Below, one piece after another: positions 5,240 through 19,840 of a DNA stretch of 52,066 bases (positions are counted from its first letter, which is position 1; each line of letters starts with the position of its first letter). This DNA comes from Candidatus Nealsonbacteria bacterium RIFOXYB1_FULL_40_15. GTDB taxonomy: Bacteria > Patescibacteriota > Minisyncoccia > Minisyncoccales > GWA2-38-27. Both the position numbers and the translations under genes were made by a program. Location of the stretch: assembly GCA_001821555.1 (NCBI GenBank), contig MHMM01000005.1, forward strand, positions 6,956 to 59,021, given 5' to 3'. The notes under the pieces were generated by a model that was not told the origin of the DNA, did no database searches, and saw only the letters and a program-made list of their open reading frames with translations.

Positions 5240-5259
5240 CCTGCCTGCCGGCAGGCAGG
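5240..5259. repeat. Perfect 20-bp palindrome CCTGCCTGCCGGCAGGCAGG (REP-like)
   Basis: Directly visible; I recall this as a dispersed repeat in Parcubacteria genomes. Confidence 0.8.
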
Positions 5260-5336
5260 AGCCCGGTCTTTGAGAGGCTCGCCTCGCTAGATCCTACGGC
5301 GAAGCGGGTCGGGCCTCTGCCAACTTTTCCCGACTC

Positions 5337-5379
5337 TTTTCTACTGCCCATTTGGGCAGTTTTGTGTTAGGATAAAACA
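5337..5379 (+). promoter_or_regulatory. Repeated hairpin + extended -10 module, copy 1
   Basis: ACTGCCC-attt-GGGCAGT-TTTGTGT-TAGGAT, then 6 nt to ATG5380. Confidence 0.7.
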
Positions 5380-6153
5380 ATGGTGCCGTTTACCGATAAA
5401 CAGTTAAAAGTTTTAATGAAGCTTGGCCTAAGTGAAATCCAGGCAATTTTATATTTAACATCCTTGAAACATGGCATTCTGTCAGTTTTAGAATTATCAA
5501 AACTTACGAAAATTAACAGACAAAAAATATACGAAGAGTCGGAGAAACTTGTGGAAATGGGTTTGTACGATATAACCAGAAAGCAAAGGAGAAAATATAT
5601 TTCTGCTGTCCCGATGAAATTATTAAAACTTGGCGAAGAAAAAATAAATAAAACTCAAGAAACCCTGAAGGAATTGTCTGGCATTATCCCTCAGCTTGAG
5701 TCTATGCCTGCGAGTAAGAAAAACAAGGTTGTCGTTAAATATTATGAAGGAATAGGTAAAATAAAAGAAGTGTATAAAGAAGAGTTGGAAATGGCTAAAA
5801 ACACAGAGGTGTTATCCTTGGCAGGATCTATTGACGATATATTTAAATTTTTTCCTGAGTCTTATTGGGAAGAATGGAACAAAAAATTCGTTAAGCAAGG
5901 ATCAAAAACCAGAATGTTGGTTCATAAATCAGATGCTGCACGGGAAACAACGGGACATGACAATGATTATAAAAGGGAGACCAGGTATATTGATAATTTC
6001 TCGCTCAAAGTAAATATAGATATTTTCGGAGAAAATGTTTTATTGGTTTCTTTTTATGATGAAATTGCCATATTGATTAATAGTCAAATACTTTCTCAAT
6101 CGTACAGAATAATGTTTGAAACTCTCTGGGGTATGGCAAAATCATTCAAATAA
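5380..6153 (+). CDS. TrmB-family transcriptional regulator
   Basis: N-terminal 'LMKLGLSEIQAILYL..LKHG..SVLELSKLTKINRQKIY' wHTH; 'VKYYEGIGKIKEVY' and C-terminal 'FETLW'. Confidence 0.85.
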   Translation: MVPFTDKQLKVLMKLGLSEIQAILYLTSLKHGILSVLELSKLTKINRQKIYEESEKLVEMGLYDITRKQRRKYISAVPMKLLKLGEEKINKTQETLKELSGIIPQLESMPASKKNKVVVKYYEGIGKIKEVYKEELEMAKNTEVLSLAGSIDDIFKFFPESYWEEWNKKFVKQGSKTRMLVHKSDAARETTGHDNDYKRETRYIDNFSLKVNIDIFGENVLLVSFYDEIAILINSQILSQSYRIMFETLWGMAKSFK

Positions 6154-6315
6154 GAAAAATGTTGTAGAAAACAAACAACAAAATAACCCCTAATTTATAT
6201 TCATTTTAACGTCACAAAAGACGTTTTTTGTTTTTTTATTACGCGAATTTGTAAATGGCATTATTATTATAGCGTAGAGTGGTTTTAATGTTCTTTTGAT
6301 TGGAAAGGAGAAAAC

Positions 6316-6516
6316 ATGCCACCTAGCGGATTTACCCCAAAAGCCGTAGAAGGTGCCCTAACTTTTATAGGGACCTGCTACGAAGATTTGCTGGCAGAGG
6401 TTCGTTCTGGCAAATACAAAAGCATCGAAGAAGGGATTGAGCATGAGCTGGGGCTAATCAAAAAAGCCCTCACGAAGCTTCATCTCGACAATGATGGCAA
6501 CATCACCGAAAGGTGA
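6316..6516 (+). CDS. Small hypothetical protein (66 aa)
   Basis: Strong SD AAAGGAG 5 nt upstream; structured 3' flank. Confidence 0.7.
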   Translation: MPPSGFTPKAVEGALTFIGTCYEDLLAEVRSGKYKSIEEGIEHELGLIKKALTKLHLDNDGNITER

Positions 6517-6526
6517 CATTGTCTCA

Positions 6527-6553
6527 AGACCTGAGTATGTCTGTAAACTACTC
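6527..6553 (+). ncRNA. Putative H-type pseudoknot 3' of the 66-aa gene
   Basis: AGAC(6527-30)/GTCT(6539-42) and GAGTA(6533-37)/TACTC(6549-53), followed by a T-tract. Confidence 0.4.
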
Positions 6554-6560
6554 TTTTTAT

Positions 6561-6947
6561 TTATTCCAATATTATTTTTTTGTCTTTGAGGATTAATTTG
6601 CTTTTGAGGAAATATAGAAGTTCGCGTTTCTCGATAATGGTTCCGTCTTTAAGGAGATATTTTGCATAATTTCTCACATCCACATCCGTATTATTCGGTT
6701 CTTTTTCGTGGCCCAGGACCCCAACTCTGAATTTGTTAAATCTAGCTATTTCCTGCTCTATTTTTGATTTTATTCCAAGTTCATCCAAATCTATCTTATC
6801 CATTAACTCTATAAACTCTTTTATCAAATCTTGCTCATTAATATTCTGATTCTTGCAGTCTATATTCCTGGCCTTGGTGCAGAAGTAATAGACATGGCGG
6901 TTCGTCCCGCCGTTTTTTAGTTTCTTGAATTTCTCATCAGCAAATAT
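6561..6947 (-). pseudogene. C-terminal remnant of a large serine recombinase (Zn-ribbon/coiled-coil part)
   Basis: The frame upstream of the listed ORF reads IFADEKFKKLKNGGTNRHVYYFCTKARNIDCKNQNINEQDLIKEF; catalytic domain and first Cys pair are absent. Confidence 0.7.
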
Positions 6948-6948
6948 G

Positions 6949-6984
6949 AAAGACTGTTTCCCCTCGGGGATAAACAGTCTTTTT
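6949..6984. terminator. Inverted repeat / intrinsic-terminator-like hairpin at the recombinase breakpoint
   Basis: AAAGACTGTTT(6949-59)/AAACAGTCTTT(6972-82) followed by Ts. Confidence 0.6.
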
Positions 6985-7030
6985 CTTTTTGGGATTGGAG
7001 CATTTAGCGATTATTTGGTACAATAAAAAT

Positions 7031-7279
7031 ATGACGATACTGGAAATATCTCAAATAATATATAATCTTGTCTCTGTGGTTGCGATAACTGTGATTACGA
7101 TACTAATTTGCGTAATTGGTTTTGACATAATCAAAATTGTAAGATCAGTTAAAAAGTTCACAAATAATATAAGCAAAGAATCATCCGAGTTATACGAAAA
7201 GATAAGTAAATTTATGGCCGGTATATTAAATCTGTCGTTTATTCCAAAGTTGTTTAATAAGAAAAAGAAGCGGAAATAA
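7031..7279 (+). CDS. Small membrane protein, translationally coupled to the GH3 gene
   Basis: TG-G-TACAAT 6 nt before ATG7031; one TM helix; TAATG overlap with the next gene. Confidence 0.7.
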   Translation: MTILEISQIIYNLVSVVAITVITILICVIGFDIIKIVRSVKKFTNNISKESSELYEKISKFMAGILNLSFIPKLFNKKKKRK

Positions 7280-9108
7280 TGAAAATATTTAGAAGTTTTC
7301 GAAGTTTTAAAGTTCTAGCAATTTTAATTGCCTGTTTTGTGTTAGTCGCGGGAGTTTTGACTTTTGTTTTTTTAAAATTTTCTCCCAATCCAAACCTTAA
7401 TACTCAATATTGCCATGTAGCAGGTTTGCCTTATCAAAATCTGGCGCTGCCAATAGAGGAAAGAGTAGACGACTTAATGAGCAGAATGAACGACTGGGAA
7501 AAAATAGGGCAGATGGCCTTAGTGGAAAAAAACAGTGTTAGTCCTAAGGATGTTACGAAATATAATTTGGGAGCTGTTTTGAGCGGAGGCGGAGCAGGAC
7601 CAAAACAAGACACTCCTTTGGCTTGGCTTGAGATGTTGAATAATTTTCAAGATGCAGCCAACGAGACATGCTTGGGAATACCGCTTTTGTATGGAGTTGA
7701 TGCCATACACGGCCATAGTAATGTTCTTGGAGCCACAATCTTTCCTCACTCTATTGGCTTGGGAGCAACCGGGGACGCAGATTTGGTTAAGCGGGTTGCA
7801 AAAGCAACTGCCGAAGAGGTGGTAGCTACTGGGATTTATTGGAGTTATTCGCCCAATCTTGATGTTGTCACAGACATACGCTGGGGCAAAACCTATGAAA
7901 CATTTGGGTCGGATACGGCAAATGTGAGTAAATTGGGATTGGCTTATCTGGAGGGGACTCAAGGATCTCTAAACGGCTATTTTGAAGTTTTGGCCAACCC
8001 AAAACATTTTATCGGCGGAGGGTCTATGACTTTTGGAACCTCGCGCAATCCAAAATTTAAGGTAGAAGAAGGGGATATAAGAATGGATGAGGAAACATTA
8101 CGCCAAACTCACTTGGTTCCTTTTAGGGCAGTTATAGACGGCGGAGCGCAAGTTATTATGGTGGGTACTGCCAGTTGGAACGGAGAAATAAACTCGGCTA
8201 ATCATCATCTTCTGACAGATATATTAAAAAACGAACTTGGATTTTCGGGGTTTGTTGTTTCTGACTGGTACGGAGTTTATGAGATAGAAAGCAATAAATA
8301 TAACTCTTTGGTCAGAGCGGTAAATGCGGGAATTGATATGGTTATGCTTCCGTTTGAATACAAAAGCTTTATGGGCTATATGCAAAAAGCGGTGTCTAGC
8401 GGCGATATATCCAGGGAGAGGCTAGACGATGCCGTAAGAAGAATCTTAACAGTCAAATTTAAAACAGGTTTATTTGACCGTCCCCGGGCTACCGTAGAAG
8501 GATTGTCTGTCATAGGGAGCAAGGATCATCGTGAATTGGCCCGAGAAGCAGTTCGTAAATCGCAAGTGTTGCTAAAAAACACAAATTCTACCCTGCCCTT
8601 ATCAAAATCATCGGCCAAGATTTTGATCTCCGGGTTTTCAGCAGATAATTTGGGAAGGCAAGCAGGAGGATGGACAACAGAATGGCAAGGCATAGATGGG
8701 AATTATGGAATAGTGGGGACTACCATACTTCAGGCAATAAAGAATACAGTTTCCAAAGACACAGAGATTGTGTTTAACAAGAAGGGCGATTTTTTGACAG
8801 AAAACAATCCGGCAGATGTTGGGATTGTAGTTGTGGGGGAGAAACCTTATGCTGAAGGCTGGGGAGATAAGGACAGTATAACTTTGAGTCCCGAAGATTT
8901 ATCGGCTATAGAAAAAACAAGGGCAAACAGCAAAAAAGTTATAGTTGTTATTGTCTCGGGCAGGCCGATGGATATAGCAAAATATGCAAAAGATTGGGAT
9001 GCGGTGGTGGCTTCGTGGCTTCCGGGTAGCGAAGGCGGGGGAGTGGCAGATGTTTTATTTGGGGAATATCCTTTTGTAGGTTCGCTACCTGTTATATGGG
9101 ACCTATGA
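7279..9108 (+). CDS. Glycoside hydrolase family 3 (beta-glucosidase/exo-glucanase type), N-terminal anchor
   Basis: GIPLLYGVDAIHG, RWGKTYETFG, KHF, GFVVSDW nucleophile, GEKPYAEG, WLPGSEG. Confidence 0.93.
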   Translation: MKIFRSFRSFKVLAILIACFVLVAGVLTFVFLKFSPNPNLNTQYCHVAGLPYQNLALPIEERVDDLMSRMNDWEKIGQMALVEKNSVSPKDVTKYNLGAVLSGGGAGPKQDTPLAWLEMLNNFQDAANETCLGIPLLYGVDAIHGHSNVLGATIFPHSIGLGATGDADLVKRVAKATAEEVVATGIYWSYSPNLDVVTDIRWGKTYETFGSDTANVSKLGLAYLEGTQGSLNGYFEVLANPKHFIGGGSMTFGTSRNPKFKVEEGDIRMDEETLRQTHLVPFRAVIDGGAQVIMVGTASWNGEINSANHHLLTDILKNELGFSGFVVSDWYGVYEIESNKYNSLVRAVNAGIDMVMLPFEYKSFMGYMQKAVSSGDISRERLDDAVRRILTVKFKTGLFDRPRATVEGLSVIGSKDHRELAREAVRKSQVLLKNTNSTLPLSKSSAKILISGFSADNLGRQAGGWTTEWQGIDGNYGIVGTTILQAIKNTVSKDTEIVFNKKGDFLTENNPADVGIVVVGEKPYAEGWGDKDSITLSPEDLSAIEKTRANSKKVIVVIVSGRPMDIAKYAKDWDAVVASWLPGSEGGGVADVLFGEYPFVGSLPVIWDL

Positions 9109-9172
9109 TATGCAAAAGGTGAAGCGTCCCCTCTTTGTTATTTGTCTCATTTCAATCCAAAATGCTATAATT

Positions 9173-9278
9173 TAGGCAGACCGAGACGCCTCGTTATAAT
9201 AGAGAGGAAAGACCCCTGTTCTACCTTCAAATTACAGGGTAGCAGTCACATTACAAGTCAAATAGACTAGGATGCCTA
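9173..9278 (+). ncRNA. Putative structured RNA between a consensus promoter and the NYN leader hairpin
   Basis: TG-C-TATAAT at 9163-9171; closing stem TAGGCA/TGCCTA with three internal hairpins (CCTC/GAGG, CCCTGT/ACAGGG, AGTC/GACT); no ORF. Confidence 0.4.
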
Positions 9279-9282
9279 TTCA

Positions 9283-9326
9283 TTTTCTACTGCCTAAAGG
9301 GGCAGTTTTGTGTTAGAATTAATCTA
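9283..9326 (+). promoter_or_regulatory. Repeated hairpin + extended -10 module, copy 2
   Basis: TTTTCT-ACTGCC-taaagg-GGCAGT-TTTGTGT-TAGAAT, then 7 nt to ATG9327. Confidence 0.7.
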
Positions 9327-9824
9327 ATGAGTGAAAATAAAGAGAAAAATAACTTTGCATATATTGACGGAGCCAACTTGAACAATGCGTTAAAAGAATT
9401 GGGTTGGGATTTGGATTATAAAAAGTTCAGAATTTGGCTGTCTGATAAATATAGAGTAGAGAAGGCATATATTTTTATTGGATTAATTCCGAAATATAAA
9501 AACCTATATAAATATTTGCAGGAGGCGGGTTTTACTTTAATATTTAAAGAAGTGATTTATGATGGAACCGGGAAGCCGAAAGGAAATTGCGATGCTGATC
9601 TTGTTTTGCAGGCAGTTTGCGATACTTACGAAAATGAGTCTGATAAAGCAGTTATTGTTACAAGTGACGGAGATTATTCTAGTCTGGTTAAGTTTTTGAT
9701 GAAAAAGAGTAAGTTGATTGCTATTTTATCTCCCAGCAGTCCTAAAAAATGTTCCATATTACTAAAAAGAACAAACGCAAAAATATCTTATATAAATGAC
9801 CAAAAAGATAATTTGAAAGCTTAA
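9327..9824 (+). CDS. NYN-domain (LabA/DUF88, PIN-like) nuclease 1
   Basis: YIDGANL, KGNCDADL and TSDGDY acidic motifs. Confidence 0.9.
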   Translation: MSENKEKNNFAYIDGANLNNALKELGWDLDYKKFRIWLSDKYRVEKAYIFIGLIPKYKNLYKYLQEAGFTLIFKEVIYDGTGKPKGNCDADLVLQAVCDTYENESDKAVIVTSDGDYSSLVKFLMKKSKLIAILSPSSPKKCSILLKRTNAKISYINDQKDNLKA

Positions 9825-9878
9825 AAGAAAAAACCCCCGGTACGGACTAACCGTACAAGGGTTTCTTTCGTAGTAATC
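9823..9878 (-). ncRNA. Putative small antisense RNA convergent on NYN gene 1
   Basis: Downstream of a minus-strand consensus promoter; two-segment hairpin ending in a U-tract at the NYN stop codon. Confidence 0.55.
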
Positions 9879-9884
9879 GTCTTC

Positions 9885-9912
9885 ATTATAGCAAAACATA
9901 AATTCGTGTCAA
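9885..9912 (-). promoter_or_regulatory. Sigma70-type promoter pointing back at NYN gene 1
   Basis: Minus strand: TTGACA-16 nt-TATAAT with extended TG. Confidence 0.7.
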
Positions 9913-10008
9913 TTGGGGACGGCGTTGGGGCGACTGGAGAGTAAAAGAATTTATTAATTCTGATAAATCCATGCATATTGGAGCAATTGAAAAGGAGAAA
10001 TAAAGCTT

Positions 10009-10497
10009 ATGAAAATTAAGATCAGAATAGCAAAACCTGAAGATGCTGGGAAGATTGTAGCGATAAATAAAATTGGGTGGTTGACCACTTATGTGAATCA
10101 GGAAAACGGAATAACTAAAGCGGACATTTTATCTAAAAACTTTAATAGACAAAAAGCTTGGAGAGAATCAATTCAAAACCATAAAAGAGAATCTCATTTT
10201 TGGATTGCTGAGTGCGACGGAAAGATTATTGGGTATATAAGCGCTAAAAAAGACAAAGAATATAACGAATTGGGAATATATATTCTTCCTAAATTTCAAT
10301 CTATGGGAATAGGCGGCAGGCTTATTAAGAAAGCTTTCAAATGGTTAGGAGAAGAGAAGAAGATTAGAATAAGTGTTGTAGGTTATAACGCCAAAGCAAT
10401 AAATTTCTATAGCAAGCACGGTTTTATAAAAATTAAGAATGAAAATCATAAATTGCCTTCAGGTAAAAATTTACCAACAATTATGATGATTAAGTAA
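10009..10497 (+). CDS. GNAT-family N-acetyltransferase
   Basis: IYILPKFQSMGIGGRLI acetyl-CoA motif; NAKAINFYSKHGF. Confidence 0.9.
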   Translation: MKIKIRIAKPEDAGKIVAINKIGWLTTYVNQENGITKADILSKNFNRQKAWRESIQNHKRESHFWIAECDGKIIGYISAKKDKEYNELGIYILPKFQSMGIGGRLIKKAFKWLGEEKKIRISVVGYNAKAINFYSKHGFIKIKNENHKLPSGKNLPTIMMIK

Positions 10498-10500
10498 AAT

Positions 10501-11154
10501 ATGAAATTATTACTAACATCAGCTGGTATATCAAATAAGTCTATTGAAAAGGCATTGTTAGATTTTATGGAGAAGCCTTTTTCTGAACTCAATCTCGCTT
10601 TTATTCCCACTGCCTCGAATGTAGAAAAGGGAAATAAAGACTGGCTTATAAAAGATCTTCAAATTTGTACGGAATTGGGATTTAAGCAAATAGATATTGT
10701 AGATATTTCCGCTCTGCCCAAAGAACACTGGGAGCCAAGGCTAAACGAAGCAGATGTTCTGATGTTTGAGGGAGGTGACACTTATTATTTGATGCATTGG
10801 GTAGATAAATCAGGGTTAAAAGATTTACTACCAGAAATGCTTAAAACGAAAGTGTATATTGGGATTAGCGCGGGAAGTATGATTTGCTGTCCCAAAATAC
10901 ACGCAGGCGAGAAGCTATATTCTTCAGAGAAAGAAAGATATAAGGGAGATGAAAAGGCCTTGGGTTTGGTAGATTTCTACATTGAACCCCATCTCAATTC
11001 CCCGTGGTTTCCGGAAGTCAAAGACGAATTTTTAAAGGAAATTGCAGAGAAAGTTAAAGAGCCAATGTATGCGATTGACGATAATACCGCCATTAAAGTT
11101 ACCGATGAAAAAGTTGAAGTTATAACGGAAGGAAAGTATATAAGATATAATTAA
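10501..11154 (+). CDS. Peptidase E (S51) family protein
   Basis: MKLLLTSAG, FIPTA, GGDT, GISAGS nucleophile, EPH. Confidence 0.88.
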   Translation: MKLLLTSAGISNKSIEKALLDFMEKPFSELNLAFIPTASNVEKGNKDWLIKDLQICTELGFKQIDIVDISALPKEHWEPRLNEADVLMFEGGDTYYLMHWVDKSGLKDLLPEMLKTKVYIGISAGSMICCPKIHAGEKLYSSEKERYKGDEKALGLVDFYIEPHLNSPWFPEVKDEFLKEIAEKVKEPMYAIDDNTAIKVTDEKVEVITEGKYIRYN

Positions 11155-11158
11155 AAAT

Positions 11159-12367
11159 ATGATTGAAAATAGTATTGTATATAGAAATTTTAGAGGCAAA
11201 TACGAATATCTGCCTATTTCAAAAGCCCAAGGGTCTGAAATTTGGGATAAAGATGGAAAAAGATATATTGATTTTACTTCTGCCTGGAACGTGACGAATT
11301 TAGGGTGGAATAATCTGGAAGTTAATGAGGCTGTTATTCAACAGGCAAAGAAGAATGTTCAAGGGCTTTTGTGGGGATCGGATCCCATCCAGGAAGAATA
11401 TGCTAAAGCCTTAACTTCTGCATTGCCGAAAAGTCTCGATGCCTGCGTAAAAGAAACAGGCGGGACGGAATCGGTGGAAACCGCCATTAAGATAGCTCGC
11501 ACTTATACAGGCAGGAAAAAAATTATTGGATTTAAGAATTCATATCATGGACAGCTTTTTGCTTCTGTTGCTCTGGGATATTCGCCAAACTCTGTAGAAA
11601 AACTTTCTCCGCTTGTGCCCGAGATTATCCAAATAGATTTTCCGCACGAAGATGTCGGAGAAGAAGGCTTTGATAAATTTATTTCCGATTTGGAAAATCT
11701 TTTATCAAAAGAAGATATCGCCGCGGTCGTAACTGAACCCGGGATTATCACCGGCTGGGGATCGACAGTTGTTGCCTATCCTGGTTTCTTGAAAAAGGTC
11801 AAAGAGCTTACTCAAAAATACGGTACTTTACTTATTGTAGATGAAGTTGGAACAGGATTTTCCAGAACCGGAAAGCTTTTCGGGATTGAACACGAGGATG
11901 TTGTTCCTGATATGATAGTTTTGGCAAAAGGTATTTCGAACGGAGCTTCTGCAATTGGGACCGTGGTCGGGCAATCTGTAATTTTCGAAAAGGCTTTTTC
12001 TGACGCTATTTTAGTCTCAACTTTTGGCTGGACTCCAATTGCCTGTGCTGCCGCCTTGAAGACGCTTCAAATTCACCGGCGTGATAAGGTTTGGGAAATG
12101 GCAAAGAAAAAAGGGGAGTATATCTTAGAGAAATTAAAACCTTTTGTGGGTAAAGCCATAACCAGCTTACGTGGAAAAGGAATGGAAATCGGTATCAGAT
12201 TCAAAAATCCGGAAACTTGCTCCGAGGTTCGTAAGAAATCATTTGAAAACGGTTTACATGTAGTCGTTGGGGGAAACGACAATATGCAGATTATGCCTCC
12301 CTTGACCATTTCTCAAAAATTATTAGATAAGGGATTGGAGACCTTGATCGAGAGCATTAGAAAATAG
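11159..12367 (+). CDS. Class III PLP-dependent aminotransferase
   Basis: DGKRYIDF, GTESVETAIK, SYHG, LIVDEVGTGFSRTG, PDMIVLAKG. Confidence 0.92.
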   Translation: MIENSIVYRNFRGKYEYLPISKAQGSEIWDKDGKRYIDFTSAWNVTNLGWNNLEVNEAVIQQAKKNVQGLLWGSDPIQEEYAKALTSALPKSLDACVKETGGTESVETAIKIARTYTGRKKIIGFKNSYHGQLFASVALGYSPNSVEKLSPLVPEIIQIDFPHEDVGEEGFDKFISDLENLLSKEDIAAVVTEPGIITGWGSTVVAYPGFLKKVKELTQKYGTLLIVDEVGTGFSRTGKLFGIEHEDVVPDMIVLAKGISNGASAIGTVVGQSVIFEKAFSDAILVSTFGWTPIACAAALKTLQIHRRDKVWEMAKKKGEYILEKLKPFVGKAITSLRGKGMEIGIRFKNPETCSEVRKKSFENGLHVVVGGNDNMQIMPPLTISQKLLDKGLETLIESIRK

Positions 12368-12439
12368 GGAGAGTATCGCGTTTGTTTCATTTTGAATTAA
12401 AGTGCTATAATTCAGGCAAGCCGAGAGGCGTTATTAAAT

Positions 12440-13165
12440 ATGGATATAAAGAAAATCGTAAAAGACGCATATAAGGATATTGCAACCAATAATTCTGGTT
12501 GTGGTTGCGGTTGCAATAACGCCAAAAGCATTTCAAAAAGTATTGGATATTCTGATGAAGAATTGAAAATAGTAGGGAAAGCCAATCTTGGCTTAGGTTG
12601 TGGCAACCCCTTAGCTTTTGGAAAGATAAAAGAAGGGTATATTGTGTTAGATTTAGGATCCGGCGCTGGCATAGATGCAATTTTAGCTGCTAAAAAAGTT
12701 GGCGAAAAGGGAAAAGTAATCGGTGTTGATATGACGGGAGAAATGATTAAAAAAGCAAAAGAAAACGCCGAAAAACAAGGCATAAAAAATGTTGAGTTTT
12801 TGTTGGGAGAAATTGAAAATTTGCCAATCGCTGATAACTTTGTTGACGCAATAATTACCAATTGTGTTATTAATTTAACTCCGGACAAATCTAAGGTATT
12901 CAGTGAGGCATATAGAGTTTTGAAGCCAGGAGGAAAGATCTATTTGTCTGATATTGTTTTATTAGAAGAACTTACAGAAGAACAGAGGAATAATAAAGAA
13001 CTCATATCCGGTTGTGTTGCAGGCGCTTTGTTAAGAAACGATTACTTGAATAAAATAAAAGAAGCTGGTTTTCGGGTAAAAGTTCTTTATGAAAACACCG
13101 GCATCAGCAAACATCAATATAACGGAATGCCACTGGAAAGCATAATGGTTGAGTTGACGAAATAA
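12440..13165 (+). CDS. arsM: Arsenite methyltransferase-like SAM methyltransferase
   Basis: GLGCGNP, LDLGSGAGID, NCVINL, GCVAGA, N-terminal GCGCGC. Confidence 0.8.
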   Translation: MDIKKIVKDAYKDIATNNSGCGCGCNNAKSISKSIGYSDEELKIVGKANLGLGCGNPLAFGKIKEGYIVLDLGSGAGIDAILAAKKVGEKGKVIGVDMTGEMIKKAKENAEKQGIKNVEFLLGEIENLPIADNFVDAIITNCVINLTPDKSKVFSEAYRVLKPGGKIYLSDIVLLEELTEEQRNNKELISGCVAGALLRNDYLNKIKEAGFRVKVLYENTGISKHQYNGMPLESIMVELTK

Positions 13166-13280
13166 ATAAAAAAACATCTAAAAATGAAAATAACGTGGAG
13201 AAGCGGGTCACCCCAATTTCCATGTAAGTCTCTCTATATGATTAATTTATGCCATGGACAATTAGAATAGATATCGGAGA

Positions 13281-13380
13281 GTGATAGATCCCGAGGGTCT
13301 AACACTCTCCGAGGGTCTAACACTCTCCGAGGGTCTAACACTCTCCGAGGGTCTAACACTCTAACACCCCTATGACAACT
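13281..13380 (+). repeat. Element with four tandem copies of CCGAGGGTCTAACACTCT (18 bp; 13291-13362)
   Basis: GTGATAGATC + 4 identical 18-mers + AACACCCCTATGACAACT; second copy at 14565-14622. Confidence 0.9.
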
Positions 13381-13388
13381 TTTTCAGG

Positions 13389-13427
13389 ACTGCCCAAATG
13401 GGCAGTTTTGTGTTAGGATAAGATTAT
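13389..13427 (+). promoter_or_regulatory. Repeated hairpin + extended -10 module, copy 3
   Basis: ACTGCCC-aaat-GGGCAGT-TTTGTGT-TAGGAT, then 8 nt to ATG13428. Confidence 0.7.
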
Positions 13428-13871
13428 ATGAAAGAAAGATTTAAAATTACACCCGCAGTTTATTTGATTTTAATAAAAGACGGTAAAATTCTTCTCCAAA
13501 GAAGATATAATACTGGATATTTTGATGGCTATTATAGTCTTCCAGCCGGGCATTTGGATGGAAACGAAACCTTTAAGCAAGCGATGGCAAGGGAGGCAAA
13601 AGAGGAGACGGGCATTGACCTGGATGTGGCGGATTTGGAGCTGGTTCATGTAATGAACCGCAAAATACCCGAAAACGAAAGAGCAGATTTCTTTTTTACG
13701 GCCAAAAATTGGATAGGCGAACCGAAAATAACGGAATCGGACAAGTGCGATGATTTAAGTTGGTTTGATTTGAATAATCTGCCGGATAATATAATTCCGT
13801 ATATAAAGCAGGCAATTAATTCTTTTTCAAATAATATAATTTACAGCGAATGCGAAGGCGAAAAAAAATAA
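13428..13871 (+). CDS. NUDIX hydrolase
   Basis: Nudix box PAGHLDGNETFKQAMAREAKEETG. Confidence 0.92.
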   Translation: MKERFKITPAVYLILIKDGKILLQRRYNTGYFDGYYSLPAGHLDGNETFKQAMAREAKEETGIDLDVADLELVHVMNRKIPENERADFFFTAKNWIGEPKITESDKCDDLSWFDLNNLPDNIIPYIKQAINSFSNNIIYSECEGEKK

Positions 13872-13872
13872 T

Positions 13873-14310
13873 GTGAAAGAAGAAAAGAAACTATTTCCCA
13901 ACGAAACTGTTTTAATAACCAAGTATTTTGATATTCATCAGGATTGGGAAGTTCCTATTCCCGGATTTTTTATTATTGCATCTGTAAGAAATATAAAGTC
14001 TATTGCAGATTTTACGGAAGATGAGTTAAGAGAATTCAGCCAAATTCTTTGCCAGATGAGAATTGGCATGAGGGAAATTTTGAATATTCAAGAAGTTTAT
14101 CTTTTTCAAAGAGAAGATACTGAGCACACTTTTCATTTGTGTTTATTTCCCAGATATGATTGGATGGAAAAATTCGGAAAAAAATCAGAATCAATGCGCC
14201 CGATTATAAATTATGCAAAAGAAAATATGTGCAACGAAGATATTTTCAGAGAGGTAAAAAAGACGGTGGCTAAAATCAGAAATTATATGGAAAAATTAAT
14301 AAAAATATGA
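13873..14310 (+). CDS. HIT-like protein with a degenerate histidine triad
   Basis: QDWEVPIPGFFII and HTFHLCLFPR resemble HIT-fold diadenosine hydrolases. Confidence 0.65.
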   Translation: MKEEKKLFPNETVLITKYFDIHQDWEVPIPGFFIIASVRNIKSIADFTEDELREFSQILCQMRIGMREILNIQEVYLFQREDTEHTFHLCLFPRYDWMEKFGKKSESMRPIINYAKENMCNEDIFREVKKTVAKIRNYMEKLIKI

Positions 14311-14564
14311 GAAAACTTATTCTTGCGTCTGGTTCGCCATCGAGAAGGGAAATGTTCGAAAAAGCCGGGTTAGTTTTCGAAGTTAATCCGAGCAATTACG
14401 AAGAAGATATGTCTTTGTAGCTTTCTCCGAAAGAGTTAGCGATGCATCTTTCTATAGGCAAGGCTCGGGCGGTTGCCGATAGATACAAACAAGGCGTGAT
14501 AGTTGGTGCGGATACATTTGTAGTTTATCAAAATCAAATTCTAGGAAAGCCGCATACTCCTGAA
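14307..14564 (+). pseudogene. maf: Maf-family nucleotide pyrophosphatase pseudogene
   Basis: MRKLILASGSPSRREM...YEEDMSL*LSPKELA...KARAV...IVGADTFV...ILGKP; in-frame TAG at 14418-20 and truncated by the repeat element. Confidence 0.88.
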
Positions 14565-14622
14565 AGTGATAGATCCCGGTGATAGATCCCGAGGGTCTAA
14601 CACTCTAACACTCTATGTCAAC
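14565..14622 (+). repeat. Second copy of the GTGATAGATCCCGAGGGTCTAACACTCT element
   Basis: GTGATAGATCCCG duplicated, one 18-mer, then AACACTCTATGTCAAC. Confidence 0.88.
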
Positions 14623-14666
14623 TTTTTCTACTGCCTAAAAGGGCGGTTTTGTGTTAGAATAAAATA
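14623..14666 (+). promoter_or_regulatory. Repeated hairpin + extended -10 module, copy 4
   Basis: TTTTTCT-ACTGCCT-aaaa-GGGCGGT-TTTGTGT-TAGAAT, then 6 nt to ATG14667. Confidence 0.7.
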
Positions 14667-15158
14667 ATGGAAAGAAAAGGGAAAAATAACTTTGCATTTA
14701 TAGACGGTCAAAATCTCCATCTTGGTATTCATAGCTTGGGCTGGAAGCTAAGTTTTAGCCGTTTCAGAAAATATCTTGCCGAAAAATATTCTGTGACAAC
14801 CGCCTATTATTTTATCGGATATATGCCCGGAAATCAGCCATTATATTCAGAACTGCAAAAATCCGGATACGTGTTGATATTCAAGCCAACCGTTCCTGAC
14901 GACAACGGCAATGTTAAGGGAAACGTAGACGCCGATTTAGTTTTACAGGCGATGATTGATTTCCCAAACTATAATAAAGCAATAATTGTAACAAGCGACG
15001 GGGATTTCTATTCTTTGGTAAAATATCTTTATCAAAATAATAAATTACGGTTTATAATGAGTCCTTATGTTAAAACCTGTTCAACCTTACTAAAAAAGGA
15101 AGCAAAAGAAAAAATCGTATTTATGAATAATTTACGACAAAAACTTGAATTAAAATGA
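14667..15158 (+). CDS. NYN-domain (LabA/DUF88, PIN-like) nuclease 2
   Basis: FIDGQNL, KGNVDADL and TSDGDF motifs; paralog of 9327..9824. Confidence 0.9.
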   Translation: MERKGKNNFAFIDGQNLHLGIHSLGWKLSFSRFRKYLAEKYSVTTAYYFIGYMPGNQPLYSELQKSGYVLIFKPTVPDDNGNVKGNVDADLVLQAMIDFPNYNKAIIVTSDGDFYSLVKYLYQNNKLRFIMSPYVKTCSTLLKKEAKEKIVFMNNLRQKLELK

Positions 15159-15208
15159 AAAGGCACCGCCAAGGGACGAAACCCAGGGAGGTGCCTTCTC
15201 TTATGGAT
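15152..15208 (-). ncRNA. Putative small antisense RNA convergent on NYN gene 2
   Basis: Same architecture as 9823-9878: promoter, short 5' tail, two-segment hairpin, U-tract at the NYN stop. Confidence 0.55.
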
Positions 15209-15214
15209 ATTTGT

Positions 15215-15244
15215 AGTATAGCATAAAAAGAGGTTAAAGGTCAA
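15215..15244 (-). promoter_or_regulatory. Sigma70-type promoter pointing back at NYN gene 2
   Basis: Minus strand: TTGACC-18 nt-TATACT with extended TG. Confidence 0.65.
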
Positions 15245-15320
15245 TGAATCTGTGGATAACTAAAATATGAAGCCGATTTGTTAGGGGATTTATATAAATT
15301 AATTCTAAAATTCTAAAAAA

Positions 15321-15911
15321 ATGGCAAAGACTAAAATTTTAGTTAAAGGTTATGCGAAAGAGATAGACGGGGAAGAGCATGCTTCTTCTACGGCGACACT
15401 GATTCAAGAGAACGGTTTAAACATAATTGTAGATCCGGGCATGGACAGGAAGGCATTGTTGGAAGGAATGTCAAAAGAAGGATTAGCAACAGGAGATATA
15501 AATTTTGTTGTTTTAACTCATACTCACTTAGACCATTGCCTTTTGGCTGGTATCTTTGAAAATGCCAAGGTTTTGGACAATAGCGACATATTTTCTTTTG
15601 ACGGGCGCATTGGCGAACACGATGGCAGAATTCCAGGCACCGACATAGAAATTGTAGGAACACCTGGCCATGATCAATTTCACTGCTCCGTCTTGGCGAA
15701 TACGGAGGATTTGGGCAAAGTAGTTATTGCCGGAGACATATTTTGGTGGTCAGATGATGAAGAGCAGAAAACAGATAGGGAATCATTAATAAACCACGAA
15801 GATCCTTACGTAAAAGATGAAGAAGCTTTAAAAGAAAGCAGGAATAAGATTTTGGATATTGCAGATTATATCATCCCGGGCCACGGCGAAATGTTTAAAG
15901 TCAAGAAATAA
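15321..15911 (+). CDS. Metallo-beta-lactamase-fold hydrolase
   Basis: IVDPG, THTHLDH, TPGH, AGD, IPGHG. Confidence 0.9.
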   Translation: MAKTKILVKGYAKEIDGEEHASSTATLIQENGLNIIVDPGMDRKALLEGMSKEGLATGDINFVVLTHTHLDHCLLAGIFENAKVLDNSDIFSFDGRIGEHDGRIPGTDIEIVGTPGHDQFHCSVLANTEDLGKVVIAGDIFWWSDDEEQKTDRESLINHEDPYVKDEEALKESRNKILDIADYIIPGHGEMFKVKK

Positions 15912-15915
15912 TTTT

Positions 15916-16362
15916 ATGAAAGATGTTAAAAAGCACCCGAAAGTGGGAGTAGGAGTTATTCTATTAAAGAATAACAAGATTTTATTGGGAAAAAGGCATG
16001 AAGATCCAGCGAAAGCCGATAGTCAGCTTCATGGAGAAGGAACTTGGACATTACCCGGAGGCAAGCTTGATTTTGGAGAGAATCTAGAGGATTGTGCGGC
16101 AAGGGAAACATTGGAAGAAACAAGTATAAAAATTAATAAAGATAGCATTAAAATTATAAGCGTGACAAATGATAAAGTTAAAGATGCCCATTTTGTAACT
16201 GTTGGTTTCTTGTGCGAAGATTTTGAGGGAGAAAAAAAGGTGATGGAGCCGGATGAAATAACAGAATGGAAATGGTTTGATTTGGACAACATCCCGAGCC
16301 CGATGTTTTTCCCAAGCGAAAAAGTAATAAAAAACTTTATTAATAAGGAAAATAAATTTTAA
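15916..16362 (+). CDS. NUDIX hydrolase (NUDT15/MutT-like)
   Basis: PKVGVGV; Nudix box PGGKLDFGENLEDCAARETLEET; likely start ATG15916. Confidence 0.9.
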   Translation: MKDVKKHPKVGVGVILLKNNKILLGKRHEDPAKADSQLHGEGTWTLPGGKLDFGENLEDCAARETLEETSIKINKDSIKIISVTNDKVKDAHFVTVGFLCEDFEGEKKVMEPDEITEWKWFDLDNIPSPMFFPSEKVIKNFINKENKF

Positions 16363-16364
16363 TC

Positions 16365-16850
16365 ATGGTTCAGAGATATTTCACACAAACATTCGGAGTA
16401 GTTGCTGCAATCATAGAAAAGGAAGGAAAAATTCTTATGGTTAAAGAAGTCAAAGAAATAGCCAAGGATTTATGGAACCATCCTGCTGGCTGGATTGATG
16501 TTGGAGAAAATCCCATCGAAGCCGTAAAGAGAGAGGTTAAAGAGGAAACAGGATATGATTTTACACCGACAGGAATTATAGGCATCTATTCTTTTTACAA
16601 AAAGCATTTGAAAGAAGATTATAATATAACGCCTCACGCTATTAAGATTGTATTTGCGGGCACGATAGTAGAAGAAGGGAGAACAGAACTGGCTGAAGAT
16701 GTTTCAGAAAATAAATGGTTTTCTCCGAAAGAAATTTACAAAATGGATAAAAATACTTTAAGGGATATTGATATAAAACAGATTCTAAAAGATTATCTTT
16801 CCGGCAAGAATTACCCCTTGGAATTAATAACTCAGATCACAAGTGAATAA
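16365..16850 (+). CDS. NUDIX hydrolase (NudJ-like)
   Basis: WNHPAGWIDVGENPIEAVKREVKEETG. Confidence 0.9.
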   Translation: MVQRYFTQTFGVVAAIIEKEGKILMVKEVKEIAKDLWNHPAGWIDVGENPIEAVKREVKEETGYDFTPTGIIGIYSFYKKHLKEDYNITPHAIKIVFAGTIVEEGRTELAEDVSENKWFSPKEIYKMDKNTLRDIDIKQILKDYLSGKNYPLELITQITSE

Positions 16851-16886
16851 CATAAAAAACAGAACCAAAAGATAGGAATTATCAAA

Positions 16887-17987
16887 ATGAATCGAGAGAA
16901 AATAAAAAACGAAGACTTAGGATATAATTCTTTTTTTGAAGCCGAAAGAAACCGGCTCAAGATGAATGATTTTCCGGTTGCCCGGGTTATTTCCGAACTC
17001 AAAGAAGCATACAGGGTTAAAAATCCAAAAGGAGAGTTTTTTGCAAAAATCACCGGTAAGCAGATTTTTACAGCTTCTTCCAGAGAGGATTATCCTGCCG
17101 TTGGCGACTGGGTTGTTATTACCGAGCTTGATGAAGAACGCGCCGTTATTCGCGGTGTTTTTCCCAGGATGACGATGATTAAAAGAAAATACGGAGATAA
17201 GAATAGGGCTGGCGAGAAAAGCGAAACTCAAATTATTGCGACAAATATTGATGTTGCTTTTGTCGTTGAATCAGTCGATCGGGATTATAATTTGAACCGT
17301 TTTGAAAGATATTTTGCCATTGCAGAAAACGGGGGAGTAAAACCCGCAATTATACTTAATAAAATAGACCTTCTTTTGAAAGAAGACCTGGGAAAAAGAT
17401 TAACTCAATTGAGAAATAGGTTTCCCGGCATTGACATTATTTTAACGAGCGTCTTGAATAACGAGGGCCTTAATGAATTACGAAAATATATAATCAAAGG
17501 CAAGACATATTGCTTTTTGGGCTCATCTGGAGTGGGAAAATCCTCTCTAATCAATAAATTAATCGGCGAGAAAATAATTAAAACAGAGGATATTAGCTCT
17601 TATTCCGGCAGAGGCAAACATGCAACCACAAGCAGGCAGATGTATTTTCTGGATAACGGGGGGATAGTGATTGATAATCCGGGCATCCGCGAAGTCGGCA
17701 TGACCGATGTCGGCCAAGGAATTAATATAACCTTTAGCGAAATAGCTGCGTTGGCTCAAAAATGCAGATATACCGATTGCGCACATACTAATGAACCGGG
17801 TTGCGAGGTTATAAAAGCCGTAAAGTCCGGAAGATTGGATAAAGAAAAATACTCCAATTACATTAATCTTAGAAAAGAAGCCGAATATTATGAGATGAGC
17901 GATGTTGAAAGAAGAGAAAAAGACCGCCAGTTTGGCAAGTTTGTAAAGAATGCCATTAAAGATCTAAAAAAATACAAGGATAATTAA
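16887..17987 (+). CDS. rsgA: Ribosome small subunit-dependent GTPase A
   Basis: PAVGDWV, NKID, GSSGVGKSS, GKHATT, DNPG, C-x4-C-x-H-x5-C zinc finger. Confidence 0.93.
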   Translation: MNREKIKNEDLGYNSFFEAERNRLKMNDFPVARVISELKEAYRVKNPKGEFFAKITGKQIFTASSREDYPAVGDWVVITELDEERAVIRGVFPRMTMIKRKYGDKNRAGEKSETQIIATNIDVAFVVESVDRDYNLNRFERYFAIAENGGVKPAIILNKIDLLLKEDLGKRLTQLRNRFPGIDIILTSVLNNEGLNELRKYIIKGKTYCFLGSSGVGKSSLINKLIGEKIIKTEDISSYSGRGKHATTSRQMYFLDNGGIVIDNPGIREVGMTDVGQGINITFSEIAALAQKCRYTDCAHTNEPGCEVIKAVKSGRLDKEKYSNYINLRKEAEYYEMSDVERREKDRQFGKFVKNAIKDLKKYKDN

Positions 17988-18027
17988 ACTAAAATAAATC
18001 TGTTTTTGAATTGTGCAGAAAGTGAAT

Positions 18028-18498
18028 ATGGCATATAGGTATTTTTCAGCAGGGTACTTAGTAAGAAATGGAAAGGTTTTTTTGATACACCACAGAAAAT
18101 TTGATAAATGGACTCCGCCCGGAGGACATATTGAAGAAAATGAAACACCAGATCAGGCTCTGACAAGAGAATGGAAAGAAGAACTTTCTTTAGACATAGA
18201 TATTCTGCCAGCTTATCAATCTGCTTTTTCGGGTGATGCAAATGCCACGCCAGTGCCAATGCCATTTCATATTGATCTTGAGCGAGAGGGATTTGAGAGT
18301 CCTCATATCGGGTATTTTTTTTATGTTAAGCTGCGTGATGAAAGCCAAAAAATCAACATTTTAGAAAGAGAGATGTTTGGCACAGGATGGTTTTCTAAAA
18401 GTGAATTACCAGGACTTAAAACCTTTGATCAAGTGAAATCCTTAGCAAGATTTGCAATTGAAAACTACCCCGGTCCGACAGGAAGCATTAAAGAATAA
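18028..18498 (+). CDS. NUDIX hydrolase
   Basis: HHRKFDKWTPPGGHIEENETPDQALTREWKEEL. Confidence 0.9.
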   Translation: MAYRYFSAGYLVRNGKVFLIHHRKFDKWTPPGGHIEENETPDQALTREWKEELSLDIDILPAYQSAFSGDANATPVPMPFHIDLEREGFESPHIGYFFYVKLRDESQKINILEREMFGTGWFSKSELPGLKTFDQVKSLARFAIENYPGPTGSIKE

Positions 18499-18503
18499 AA
18501 AAT

Positions 18504-18534
18504 CCGCCAAGAAAAAGTTTTCTTAGCGGTTTTA
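18504..18534 (+). terminator. Intrinsic terminator closing the accessory gene run
   Basis: CCGCCAAGAAAA/TTTTCTTAGCGG followed by a T-tract. Confidence 0.6.
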
Positions 18535-18775
18535 CTTTGAATTGAGAACCGCTAGTCCACTAGGGGGAAATAACTTATTCTTGTTCAAACAGAAGGGTTG
18601 TTAACAGAACTGTGGAAAAATCCTGTGGAGAACCGGTTTGACTGCCCTTTTGGCCGGCAATATTATCAAGATTAAGCGAAAAGCATTATAGAAAATGCGC
18701 GTAAAAGGTCGAAGGGATTAATAACAAACTATTTATTCAAGCCAATCTTGGGTAAATAAGGTTAAAAGAAAAAAT

Positions 18776-19840
18776 ATGAAAAAAATAATAATTAGTTTAA
18801 GCGTAATTGGCGTAATCGCCGTGGCCGTGATTGGAGGAACAGTTGCTTATTTCACAGACACAGAAACAAGCGTTGGGAATACTTTTGCGGCAGGAACAAT
18901 AGATATTGAAGTAGATGGAGAAAATCCTTGGACAGAAACAGAAACTCTCAATGTTTCTGATATGAAACCGTCCCAGCATGAATATACAGAATATGTAATT
19001 CATAATGTCGGAGAAAACCCTGCAAACATATTCAAAACAATAAGCAATATCAGAGAAGATGATGGGCAGGTGTCTGAATCAGAGTGTACGGATGCTGGGG
19101 GGGCATGGGAGGGTGAAGGAGAGTGCAGTAATTATACATCCAAAGACGATATATCGTCTGTGGTGAAATACGATATGTCTGTTTGGGTTTATAACGAAAA
19201 CCCCGAAGATTCCCAAGCCAAGCCAATATGGTGGCAAGTCATATATACCGATGGAATGGGAGAAACATTAAAGAGCATTGAGAATGTTGATGTTTTGTTG
19301 GGAATGTTGCCAGCCGGCTGGTATATGAAAGTTCAGCAGAGCTATCATATGGACGGAGAAGCAGGAAACGAATATCAAGGGGATATCATGAATTTTGATA
19401 TTACTCTTAAAGCAGAACAGTTGATAAATACTGTGATTTTGGAGAATAAAATATTTCCAGCAGGAGAAGAGCCCACAATAGAGTATGATTCTATAAGTGC
19501 GAAGGTTGAATATACCGTAAAGGATGCAGAATTTGACTATGTGTTGACAGTGAACGGCATGTCAAACGGACAATACACCCTAATCGCATGGGATGATACT
19601 CCCAATGGTTATACATTTGATTGGAATAATAGAGGAAGCGCTATTTCTCTGGCTAATATAACTGTAAGCGGAGATCCTGCCAGTGTGAGTGGAAGCATTG
19701 ATCTTGAAAGGGATCTTATCAATGCCAAGCTATGGTTGATTACCGGAACCTATCCGGTTGGCAGTCCTGTAGGTAGCTTTGGATGGAATCCAAACGGATT
19801 ATTTGAAACTGCCTTGATGGACTACTACGATAGTTTGTAA
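18776..19840 (+). CDS. TasA/camelysin (M73)-family protein with SipW-type signal peptide
   Basis: MKKIIISL...GGTVAYFTDTETSVGNTFAAGTIDI; 'AGNEYQG' motif. Confidence 0.85.
   Translation: MKKIIISLSVIGVIAVAVIGGTVAYFTDTETSVGNTFAAGTIDIEVDGENPWTETETLNVSDMKPSQHEYTEYVIHNVGENPANIFKTISNIREDDGQVSESECTDAGGAWEGEGECSNYTSKDDISSVVKYDMSVWVYNENPEDSQAKPIWWQVIYTDGMGETLKSIENVDVLLGMLPAGWYMKVQQSYHMDGEAGNEYQGDIMNFDITLKAEQLINTVILENKIFPAGEEPTIEYDSISAKVEYTVKDAEFDYVLTVNGMSNGQYTLIAWDDTPNGYTFDWNNRGSAISLANITVSGDPASVSGSIDLERDLINAKLWLITGTYPVGSPVGSFGWNPNGLFETALMDYYDSL

Follow-up and report, generated by a model that had tools for sequence, protein, structure and literature searches.

In type III toxin-antitoxin (TA) systems (ToxIN, AbiQ/antiQ, CptIN), the antitoxin consists of tandem repeats that lie upstream of the toxin gene on the same strand, are terminator-separated and are cut by the toxin. 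Nuclease-plus-RNA modules are also known from mobile elements, namely HEARO/IscB and TnpB with omega RNA, and IS10 with RNA-OUT. Here we analyse a stretch of 52,066 nucleotides from Candidatus Nealsonbacteria bacterium RIFOXYB1_FULL_40_15 (GenBank assembly GCA_001821555.1, contig MHMM01000005.1, positions 6,956 to 59,021; hereafter the window), in which each of two genes for NYN/LabA-like nucleases faces a predicted small-RNA gene on the opposite strand. This layout can be compared with par(pAD1), where, according to the sections of the source drawn on here, convergent promoters share a bidirectional terminator and complementary terminator loops start RNA–RNA pairing (PMC7472228). The protein can be compared with the CRISPR-associated NYN of Bacteroides fragilis, described in the available part of its report as a robust, sequence-nonspecific, Mn-dependent single-strand RNase (PMC11346440). 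The pairing of NYN with the putative small RNA is kept in hundreds of ultra-small bacteria as a near-obligate link.

The module is real, conserved and apparently undescribed. At gathering thresholds, Rfam 15 returned only four tRNAs in the window, and in E-value mode the best match in 9780-9960 was rliE, at 22.3 bits against a threshold of 90. Full-text searches of the literature yielded nothing on a NYN-linked small RNA, although motif lists in paper supplements could still include it.

Two NYN genes and the predicted small-RNA genes that face them

The genome that holds the window comprises 761 kb, the size usual for Patescibacteria (Candidate Phyla Radiation, CPR), and is 99% complete. Its two cassettes consist of the following features, in window positions:

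9327-9824, plus strand: NYN1, gene for a 165-residue NYN/LabA-like nuclease (Pfam PF01936, 52.6 bits)
9823-9877, minus strand: predicted small RNA 1, 55 nt (match to covariance model R1 of 65.1 bits at G000:C5:16778-16832(-))
9885-9912, minus strand: predicted promoter of small RNA 1 (−35 TTGACA at 9912-9907, 16-nt spacer with TG, −10 TATAAT at 9890-9885)
14667-15158, plus strand: NYN2, gene for a 163-residue NYN/LabA-like nuclease (Pfam PF01936, 52.9 bits)
15153-15208, minus strand: predicted small RNA 2, 56 nt (R1 match of 65.7 bits at G000:C5:22108-22163(-))
15215-15244, minus strand: predicted promoter of small RNA 2 (TTGACC at 15244-15239, 18-nt spacer with TG, TATACT at 15220-15215; 10/12 consensus positions)

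Small RNA 1 is predicted to consist, in order, of a 9-nt 5′ tail, an outer stem, an internal loop, an inner stem, the loop UUAGU and a U-tract. Small RNA 2 is a variant with the outer stem GCACC/GGUGC and the loop UUUCGU. The RNA ends (9877 to 9823 and 15208 to 15153) were mapped from the covariance-model matches. The 3′ end of small RNA 1 reaches the NYN1 stop codon, small RNA 2 overlaps the final two codons of NYN2, stop included, and the U-tracts of both predicted RNAs terminate on the NYN stop codons. Compared with shuffled sequences, the fold energies were −22.3 kcal/mol (z −3.7) for small RNA 1 and −28.7 kcal/mol (z −6.2) for small RNA 2. The opposite strands also fold, more weakly (−18.0 and −24.5 kcal/mol for copies 1 and 2), and the hairpin therefore reads as a bidirectional terminator common to NYN and the small RNA.

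The promoter of small RNA 1, of the sigma-70 type like that of small RNA 2, is the sole 12/12 match to the consensus in window positions 5000-20000 (15 kb), a region in which promoter-like sites overall are not above expectation (50, against 41.6 ± 6.0 in shuffles). A reading made earlier from the sequence alone, without database searches, had placed a promoter, a tail, an interrupted hairpin and a U-tract after both NYN genes, and every one of these parts was found in its place. It had also held that neither promoter serves an open reading frame (ORF), which stands as well: the minus-strand ORFs 9762-9899, 9821-9976 and 15065-15244 begin within or upstream of the RNA promoters, so their start codons would be absent from the transcript. 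Each NYN gene of the window is accompanied by a putative small-RNA gene that is conserved and tied to NYN. Within the whole genome only these two loci gave strong R1 matches; the next were the reverse strand of one copy (29.3 bits) and then an unrelated match at 21 bits. A hairpin at 6894-6914 has a similar loop. It was considered as a further small-RNA copy and rejected, as it has neither a promoter nor an R1 match and reads as an ordinary terminator.

NYN1 and NYN2, whose proteins are 50% identical, both score above the curated cut-off of 24.2 bits for the Pfam NYN family. The AlphaFold model of NYN1 was confident (pLDDT 92.9). Its best Foldseek match in the PDB was 2qip (E 3.9e-10, TMq 0.78), followed by the MARF1 NYN domains 5yaa and 6fdl, and model and matches together support a PIN-like alpha/beta fold. 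Residues D14, N17, D89, D114 and D116 are invariant across 28 NYN homologues and are the presumed metal site. The acidic, metal-binding D14, D89, D114 and D116 are presumably the catalytic positions of NYN1. We read NYN as a PIN-like, metal-dependent nuclease that probably acts as a single-strand RNase. An enzyme like the nonspecific single-strand RNase of B. fragilis would need restraint. No NCBIfam model matches this NYN sub-family. In PADLOC-DB 2.0 the two proteins match the generic NYN model PDLC01154 weakly and partially (28.9 and 30.2 bits), and HEC-09 matches weakly. The window holds no partner defence genes, the neighbours being metabolic genes, and only 3 NYN relatives were found among 2.9 million viral contigs. 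The anti-phage role that the sequence-only reading had raised as a possibility is thus conjectural.

Conservation of the pairing and constraint on the RNA

To assess the pairing from the side of the protein, we searched 201 genomes of the order with NYN1; 49 of them, from 42 of 151 genera, hold a relative. All 30 order loci that were fetched, and NYN2 in addition, carry the element 3′ of NYN on the opposite strand. It consists of TTGAC(A/T), a 16–19-nt spacer often with TG, a −10 box and then an RNA of near-constant length, 53–56 nt. The covariance model R1 was built from 31 sequences. A scan of GTDB with one genome per species returned at least 589 NYN relatives, the named ones nearly all from Patescibacteria metagenome-assembled genomes (MAGs), and the best 80 were kept. 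R1 matches 79 of these best 80 loci with scores of 36.7–77.1 bits, each time immediately 3′ of the gene on the minus strand; in the other locus the contig ends 5 nt past the NYN gene. The labels of the loci span many CPR lineages and include two Nanoarchaeota, one Bacteroidetes and two Gammaproteobacteria, all of them MAG labels with unverified binning.

Seven more divergent NYN loci, either without a listed R1 match or in genomes outside the RNA search, were read by eye. All seven have a convergent TTGACA/−10 promoter and a variant hairpin RNA that starts AUCA(C/A)G. The NYN proteins of loci that keep promoter and spacing are only 43–70% identical. Among the NYN genes whose downstream DNA was read, none lacks a convergent promoter and hairpin, one locus of the NYN3 group described below being ambiguous. 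An alignment that mixed reverse-strand echoes with true matches was left out of the counts.

The pairing was also approached from the side of the RNA. R1 matched 41 of 151 order genomes (E ≤ 0.001), and 33 of the 41 also had a NYN match. The eight remaining genomes comprise two with C-terminal NYN fragments (G043, G085), three with a strong RNA copy adjoining unrelated genes (G145, G057, G081), two with weak matches that resemble plain terminators (G052, G100) and one with a variant RNA copy 87 nt from a contig end (G130). Metagenomes were scanned with an exact pattern of the two RNA outer-stem halves, which gave at least 120 stretches. Eighty loci were examined for the neighbour of the RNA:

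Full-length NYN converging on the RNA 3′ end: 55 of 80
Partial NYN at the RNA 3′ end, some cut by contig ends: 10 of 80
Insufficient room for a gene: 5 of 80
Orphans, no NYN within 400 nt: 8 of 80
RNA adjoining the start of another NYN gene: 2 of 80

NYN therefore stands beside the RNA in 65 of 80 copies that were found by the RNA pattern alone.

The layout recurs, with different putative RNAs, in three more divergent groups of NYN. The first was met in the genome of the window itself, on another contig outside the window, as a third paralogue of 174 residues (NYN3, G000:C6:46597-47118, locus L003/L138). Its tblastn alignment with NYN1 shows 28% identity (33% in another search), and it has its own convergent promoter and a different predicted small RNA, with a 13-nt tail, a 9-pair stem and a GCAA loop. 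Relatives of this group occur in 10 of 201 order genomes. A convergent TTGACA/TGnTATAMT promoter is present in 12 of 13 NYN3-group loci with readable downstream DNA, and one locus is ambiguous. In the RNAs of the group, a tail of 7–17 nt leads to a simple hairpin, capped by a tetraloop or a comparable loop (GCAA, UUCG, GAAA, UUUU), and a U-tract. The five closest loci have a conserved 13-nt tail but a wholly different, still paired stem. A distant fourth NYN (L046) has the same layout. Among the loci read, only L039 (G010:C1, 1538-2134) has the RNA gene and its own promoter downstream of NYN on the same strand; there, the −35 of that promoter and the end of the NYN ORF overlap. The cassette is absent from the seven other genomes of this genome's family that were searched.

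We then examined the predicted fold across 109 distinct RNA sequences. Of the cells, 92.9% pair, against 79.0 ± 0.5 in shuffles (0 of 500 as high) and at most 69.8% in slid-partner controls. Thirteen of 16 pairs vary on both sides, and the covariation score was 0.465 compared with 0.196 for shuffles. From base to tip, the structure is as follows:

Outer stem: 6 pairs, A/U-rich
Next: one A-G or C-G position, then three G-C pairs
Internal loop: small, mostly U,U opposite C
Inner stem: 6 pairs, freely covarying
Apical loop: 5–6 nt, UUYYGU, closed by GG/CC

When the two strands of the 31-sequence set are compared, G-U cells number 29 on the RNA strand (93.7% paired) and 2 on the NYN-sense strand (87.9% paired); this asymmetry indicates that the folded molecule under selection is the minus-strand one.

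The promoter was tallied in 78 loci, two of which are cut by a contig end. TTGACT serves as the −35 box in 32 loci and TTGACA in 28; spacers measure 16 nt in 45 loci and 17 nt in another 19; and in 59, a gap of 6 or 7 nt separates the end of the −10 from model position 1. With the promoter in this register, the RNA is expected to start at the conserved A of AUCAC. Mean pairwise identity was compared over 104 loci:

NYN protein: 0.55
NYN coding DNA: 0.59; third codon positions: 0.40
Small RNA: 0.72, despite the freely varying inner stem

The positions conserved at 90–100% are A1, U2, A7 and G9 of the tail, the G-C pairs around the internal loop, and the GU of the apical loop with the closing pairs. 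The NYN ORF stops before the hairpin in some homologues and enters or crosses it, in differing frames, in others, so coding does not account for the conservation of the RNA. The sequence-only reading had noted, from two copies, that the stems differ where geometry and loop are kept, and had asked whether homologues of NYN keep more than a generic terminator. With the downstream regions collected and the covariance model built, promoter, geometry and loop all prove to be retained in the homologues, with stems that covary and a loop and tail of conserved sequence.

One further feature of the alignment concerns columns 7-12 (the tail and the start of the outer stem, ACGAAA), which roughly complement the RNA's own apical loop UUYYGU at columns 28-33. 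The ACGAAA region thus resembles the loop of the NYN mRNA 3′ hairpin and might be a common recognition motif. A pseudoknot between tail and loop was considered and dropped: the tail sits at the base of a 16-pair helix with the tip out of reach, and the variable loop positions show no covariation with the tail.

Flanks, remnants and movement of the cassette

The regions upstream of NYN are wholly unlike between genomes. In 26 of 99 loci, a direct repeat is shared by the 300-nt flank upstream of NYN and the 300-nt flank past the RNA promoter (three genomes of this set were entered by two routes, and 1 of the 26 loci is a duplicate entry). Repeats were counted if they scored above the 99th percentile of controls made from mismatched pairs, among which the highest score was 18; real scores reached 125, and the best repeats measure 40–130 bp. 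Because such long direct repeats flank about a quarter of the loci, NYN and its predicted small RNA appear to behave as a mobile cassette of 600–700 bp with no recombinase. No transposase or integrase was found to travel with the cassette in the loci read, and neither cassette of the window has convincing flank repeats. Four DNA read sets gave only short, low-depth contigs, none of which bridges an empty site; their joints were the conserved NYN cores of other organisms.

A search for longer NYN homologues returned 6 proteins, all extended or fused to fragments of host genes. In-frame fusions of inositol-monophosphatase, GNAT and TPP-enzyme fragments to a full NYN domain (P0002, P0004, P0006) are among them, and the fusion proteins are probably insertions of the cassette inside genes. 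No intein domain was found among the 6, in a search that is weak as evidence of absence.

Remnants of the cassette were also detected. Five of the 8 metagenome orphans (L165, L184, L187, L198, L229) have lost internal parts of NYN, with the RNA gene and its promoter complete. Four of the five retain a few first codons; three of these four, together with L198, which has no start, retain the last codons. The kept ends of NYN are joined together or directly to the hairpin. Among order genomes, decayed NYN genes with a high-scoring RNA occur in G017, G060, G079, G043, G085 and G038. In the window, both NYN copies sit in a patchwork region, and NYN2 follows a Maf-like pseudogene (14307-14582), which covers positions 1-33 and 40-86 of the 187 of the Pfam Maf profile and has an in-frame TAG at 14418-14420. 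The pseudogene is truncated where the NYN2 cassette and a repeated unit in front of it, here called the joint, begin. The sites that border the cassettes are:

9289-9319, plus strand: joint (hairpin and extended −10), 8 nt before the NYN1 start codon
14630-14660, plus strand: second copy of the joint, 6 nt before the NYN2 start codon
15251-15259, no strand assigned: perfect DnaA-box-like 9-mer TGTGGATAA, 6 nt beyond the −35 of small RNA 2

The joint consists of ACTGCC, 6 nt and GGCAGT, which runs into the extended −10 TGTGTTAGRAT. The genome has five copies, four of them in the window and within 10 kb of one another (5343-5373, 9289-9319, 13389-13419 and 14630-14660) and one at G000:C4 near 39364 (minus strand). 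Those of the window serve, in order, a TrmB-like regulator, NYN1, a NUDIX gene and NYN2, and the mRNAs look leaderless, as the start codon follows 6–8 nt after the −10 in all four. The joint is likely a leaderless-type promoter borrowed from the host genome and lies outside the conserved cassette. Similar terminator-plus-TGnTAnAAT units stand upstream of NYN in other genomes. The NUDIX gene and NYN2 have about 90 nt of upstream sequence in common (13281-13372 and 14567-14622). An 18-nt unit, CCGAGGGTCTAACACTCT, occurs there in four tandem copies before the NUDIX gene and once before NYN2, resembling a recombining cassette joint.

The DnaA-box-like 9-mer has 17 perfect copies in the 761-kb genome. 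Across the loci L002-L127, the 9-mer TTATCCACA or its complement, with at most 1 mismatch, was found in the first 60 nt past the −35 at 32 of 107 loci, compared with about 2.7 expected (background 0.025 per 60 nt). It lies 2–20 nt beyond the −35 of the RNA promoter, in either orientation, and was also seen by eye in several NYN3-group loci. The site may mark a DnaA-controlled promoter or an end of the cassette.

Elsewhere in the window, the tRNA match at 49238-49372 spans 135 nt against a 71-position model and may carry an intron or an insert.

Possible action of the RNA and comparison with known systems

We propose that NYN and the facing RNA gene would form a self-contained two-gene cassette, widespread in Patescibacteria and moving between sites. 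Its RNA partner, of about 56 nt with a conserved 5′ tail (AUCAC...), a 16-pair interrupted hairpin and the loop UUYYGU closed by GG/CC, would end in a terminator common to NYN. The RNA would be the cassette's own antidote or controller of the nuclease, perhaps a type-III-like inhibitor or decoy that NYN recognises directly. The consensus promoter predicts high, constitutive output of the RNA, as expected of an antidote kept in excess. That the RNA has a controlling role of some kind over NYN is, in our judgement, slightly more likely than not. That it does so by direct binding to the NYN protein, or as a decoy, is a tentative view which we slightly favour over antisense pairing. We infer that the RNA is transcribed, that NYN would be toxic, that the RNA would neutralise it and how the two would bind.

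Several observations point to direct recognition. The primary sequence of tail and loop is conserved, and this speaks against pure antisense, since an RNA that targets only its own complement needs no such conservation. NYN is the only protein that always travels with the RNA. The tetraloops of the NYN3 group would make poor kissing loops, and the conserved 13-nt tail of that group lies outside the terminated NYN mRNA. Finally, in the single co-directional locus (G010) the RNA gene and its promoter stand downstream of NYN on the same strand.

Other observations weigh against this proposal. The convergent, terminator-sharing layout is near-invariant (30 + 79 + 65 + 7 loci, compared with 1 co-directional) and is also found in NYN groups with RNAs of unrelated sequence. 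A layout held so constant favours an effect in cis, by antisense or transcriptional interference, as an RNA acting purely in trans needs no such layout. The co-directional layout is found in a single genome, and its maintenance is unsupported by relatives in the family. The conserved internal loops and the apical loop of 5–6 nt also suit antisense RNAs that start by loop-loop contact, and part of the conservation (A-tract, U-tract) is the need of any bidirectional terminator. RNA-only remnants are expected from target size alone, about 500 nt for NYN as against about 95 nt for the RNA gene; the loss of NYN with the RNA kept is therefore suggestive only.

The strongest rival is cis-antisense control of a type I kind, as in par(pAD1). 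As both transcripts end in the same bidirectional terminator, the 3′ hairpins of the small RNA and the NYN mRNA are perfect complements. Contact between their loops would lead to a duplex and to less NYN, through RNase III cleavage or through loss of the mRNA's protective 3′ hairpin. With a single exception, the roughly 180 loci have the convergent layout of par(pAD1), where, in the sections of the source drawn on, terminator loops start the pairing (PMC7472228). Both strands fold as hairpins, and the NYN ORF enters the hairpin in many homologues. The conserved internal loops would aid strand exchange. In CopA/CopT-type antisense RNAs, internal loops help in this way. However, the second pairing region of par has no counterpart: over 104 loci, the RNA scored −16.1 kcal/mol against its own NYN start and −15.9 kcal/mol against foreign ones. 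The tail and loop are conserved far past what self-complementarity needs, the tail falls outside the terminated mRNA, and the G-U pairs favour the small-RNA strand only. The tetraloops of the NYN3 group and the co-directional locus likewise speak against pairing, and we regard the antisense explanation as somewhat less likely than direct binding. The sequence-only reading had judged protein binding likelier than antisense. The conserved tail and loop, the co-directional locus and the NYN3 hairpins favour that judgement without proof, and the invariant, par-like convergent layout keeps antisense alive.

In a second rival explanation the RNA, or its DNA hairpin, does not inhibit NYN but serves the mobility of the cassette or the working of the nuclease. 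As a cofactor it might activate NYN or direct it to a target, or it might act in cis as an end of the element (attC or IS200/IS605-like), to which the DnaA-box-like site may belong. The long flank repeats, the frequency of the 9-mer just beyond the −35 and the in-frame fusions to host-gene fragments fit such a role, as do the miniature derivatives, which lose the body of NYN and keep the gene ends and the RNA gene in the manner of non-autonomous elements. The nuclease-plus-RNA pairs of IscB/TnpB with omega RNA provide a precedent. The tail, however, is conserved rather than variable, so the RNA is no programmable guide, and the conserved promoter at fixed spacing to the RNA start calls for an RNA product and not a DNA site alone. 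In addition, R1 matches away from NYN are few, no transposase or integrase accompanies the cassette in the loci read, and the window copies have no flank repeats. We consider this explanation improbable.

An ordinary bidirectional terminator beside AT-rich, promoter-like sequence, with no dedicated RNA, is highly improbable. In its favour, hairpins preceded by an A-tract and followed by a U-tract are frequent as terminators, and the AT-rich region shows no overall excess of promoter-like sites. Against it, the −35, TG, −10, spacing and hairpin distance are kept across loci whose NYN proteins are 43–70% identical, loop and tail are conserved with covarying stems, and no other copy above 30 bits stands on unrelated DNA in the 761-kb genome.

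In its fullest form, our proposal of direct recognition states that an RNA of about 56 nt, recognised by its AUCAC tail and GG-UUYYGU-CC loop, binds NYN and silences or licenses it. The two would form the smallest known self-mobile nuclease-plus-RNA cassette, spread across Patescibacteria and MAGs labelled Nanoarchaeota, with RNA-only copies acting in anti-addiction and a promoter tuned by DnaA. We offer this combined form as speculative, and it is unlikely to hold in every part.

Patescibacteria are a large share of bacterial diversity, and to our knowledge hardly any regulatory RNA or toxin-antidote system is known from them. The putative small RNA would be an abundant family there, with at least 589 NYN loci in species representatives, at least 120 metagenome pattern matches, clear covariation and a fixed protein partner. 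Should the RNA bind NYN, this would be a new TA architecture and the first case of a PIN-like/NYN nuclease with an RNA antidote; should the RNA act as antisense, the par-type design would extend from tiny membrane peptides to enzymes. Either way, the pairing offers a handle on the role of bacterial LabA-like NYN proteins and on the spread of a 600–700-bp, recombinase-free cassette that leaves long duplications. It also provides a compact, portable promoter-RNA-terminator unit that seemingly works in many hosts.

Finally, we compared the module with its nearest relatives. The LabA-like NYN proteins VPA0982 of Vibrio parahaemolyticus (2qip) and B. fragilis NYN belong to the same domain family, with the same fold and conserved acidic residues; in the portions of the literature on them that were consulted, no partner RNA gene is described. 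With type III TA the module has in common a ribonuclease-type protein beside a small structured RNA, and the idea of an RNA that binds and silences an enzyme. Unlike the type III array, the RNA here is a single hairpin with its own promoter, downstream and convergent, and the protein has a NYN/PIN-like fold rather than that of a ToxN/AbiQ/CptN-type toxin. From the module of NYN toxin and RNA antitoxin that the sequence-only reading had put forward, the conserved, NYN-linked RNA gene stands, and the match to type III in array and toxin type does not.

The mobile nuclease-plus-RNA modules resemble the cassette as small selfish units in which a nuclease gene has a conserved structured RNA at one end and leaves non-autonomous remnants. 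In contrast to the omega RNA of IscB/TnpB, the RNA here has no variable guide segment, is far shorter and is convergent rather than co-transcribed; RNA-OUT of IS10, for its part, targets the transposase mRNA at its 5′ rather than its 3′ end. With par(pAD1) Fst/RNA II of Enterococcus faecalis, as far as the consulted sections describe it, the module has in common convergent promoters, a small RNA of about 40–60 nt and a shared bidirectional intrinsic terminator (PMC7472228), and this arrangement is conserved in the NYN homologues. The toxin of par is a 33-residue membrane peptide of the small hydrophobic kind typical of such type I systems, whereas NYN is a soluble protein of 163–165 residues, and the second complementary region over the start codon (DRa/DRb) has no counterpart at NYN. 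The RNA that faces NYN further differs from par in the conservation of its primary sequence over a phylum-level range.

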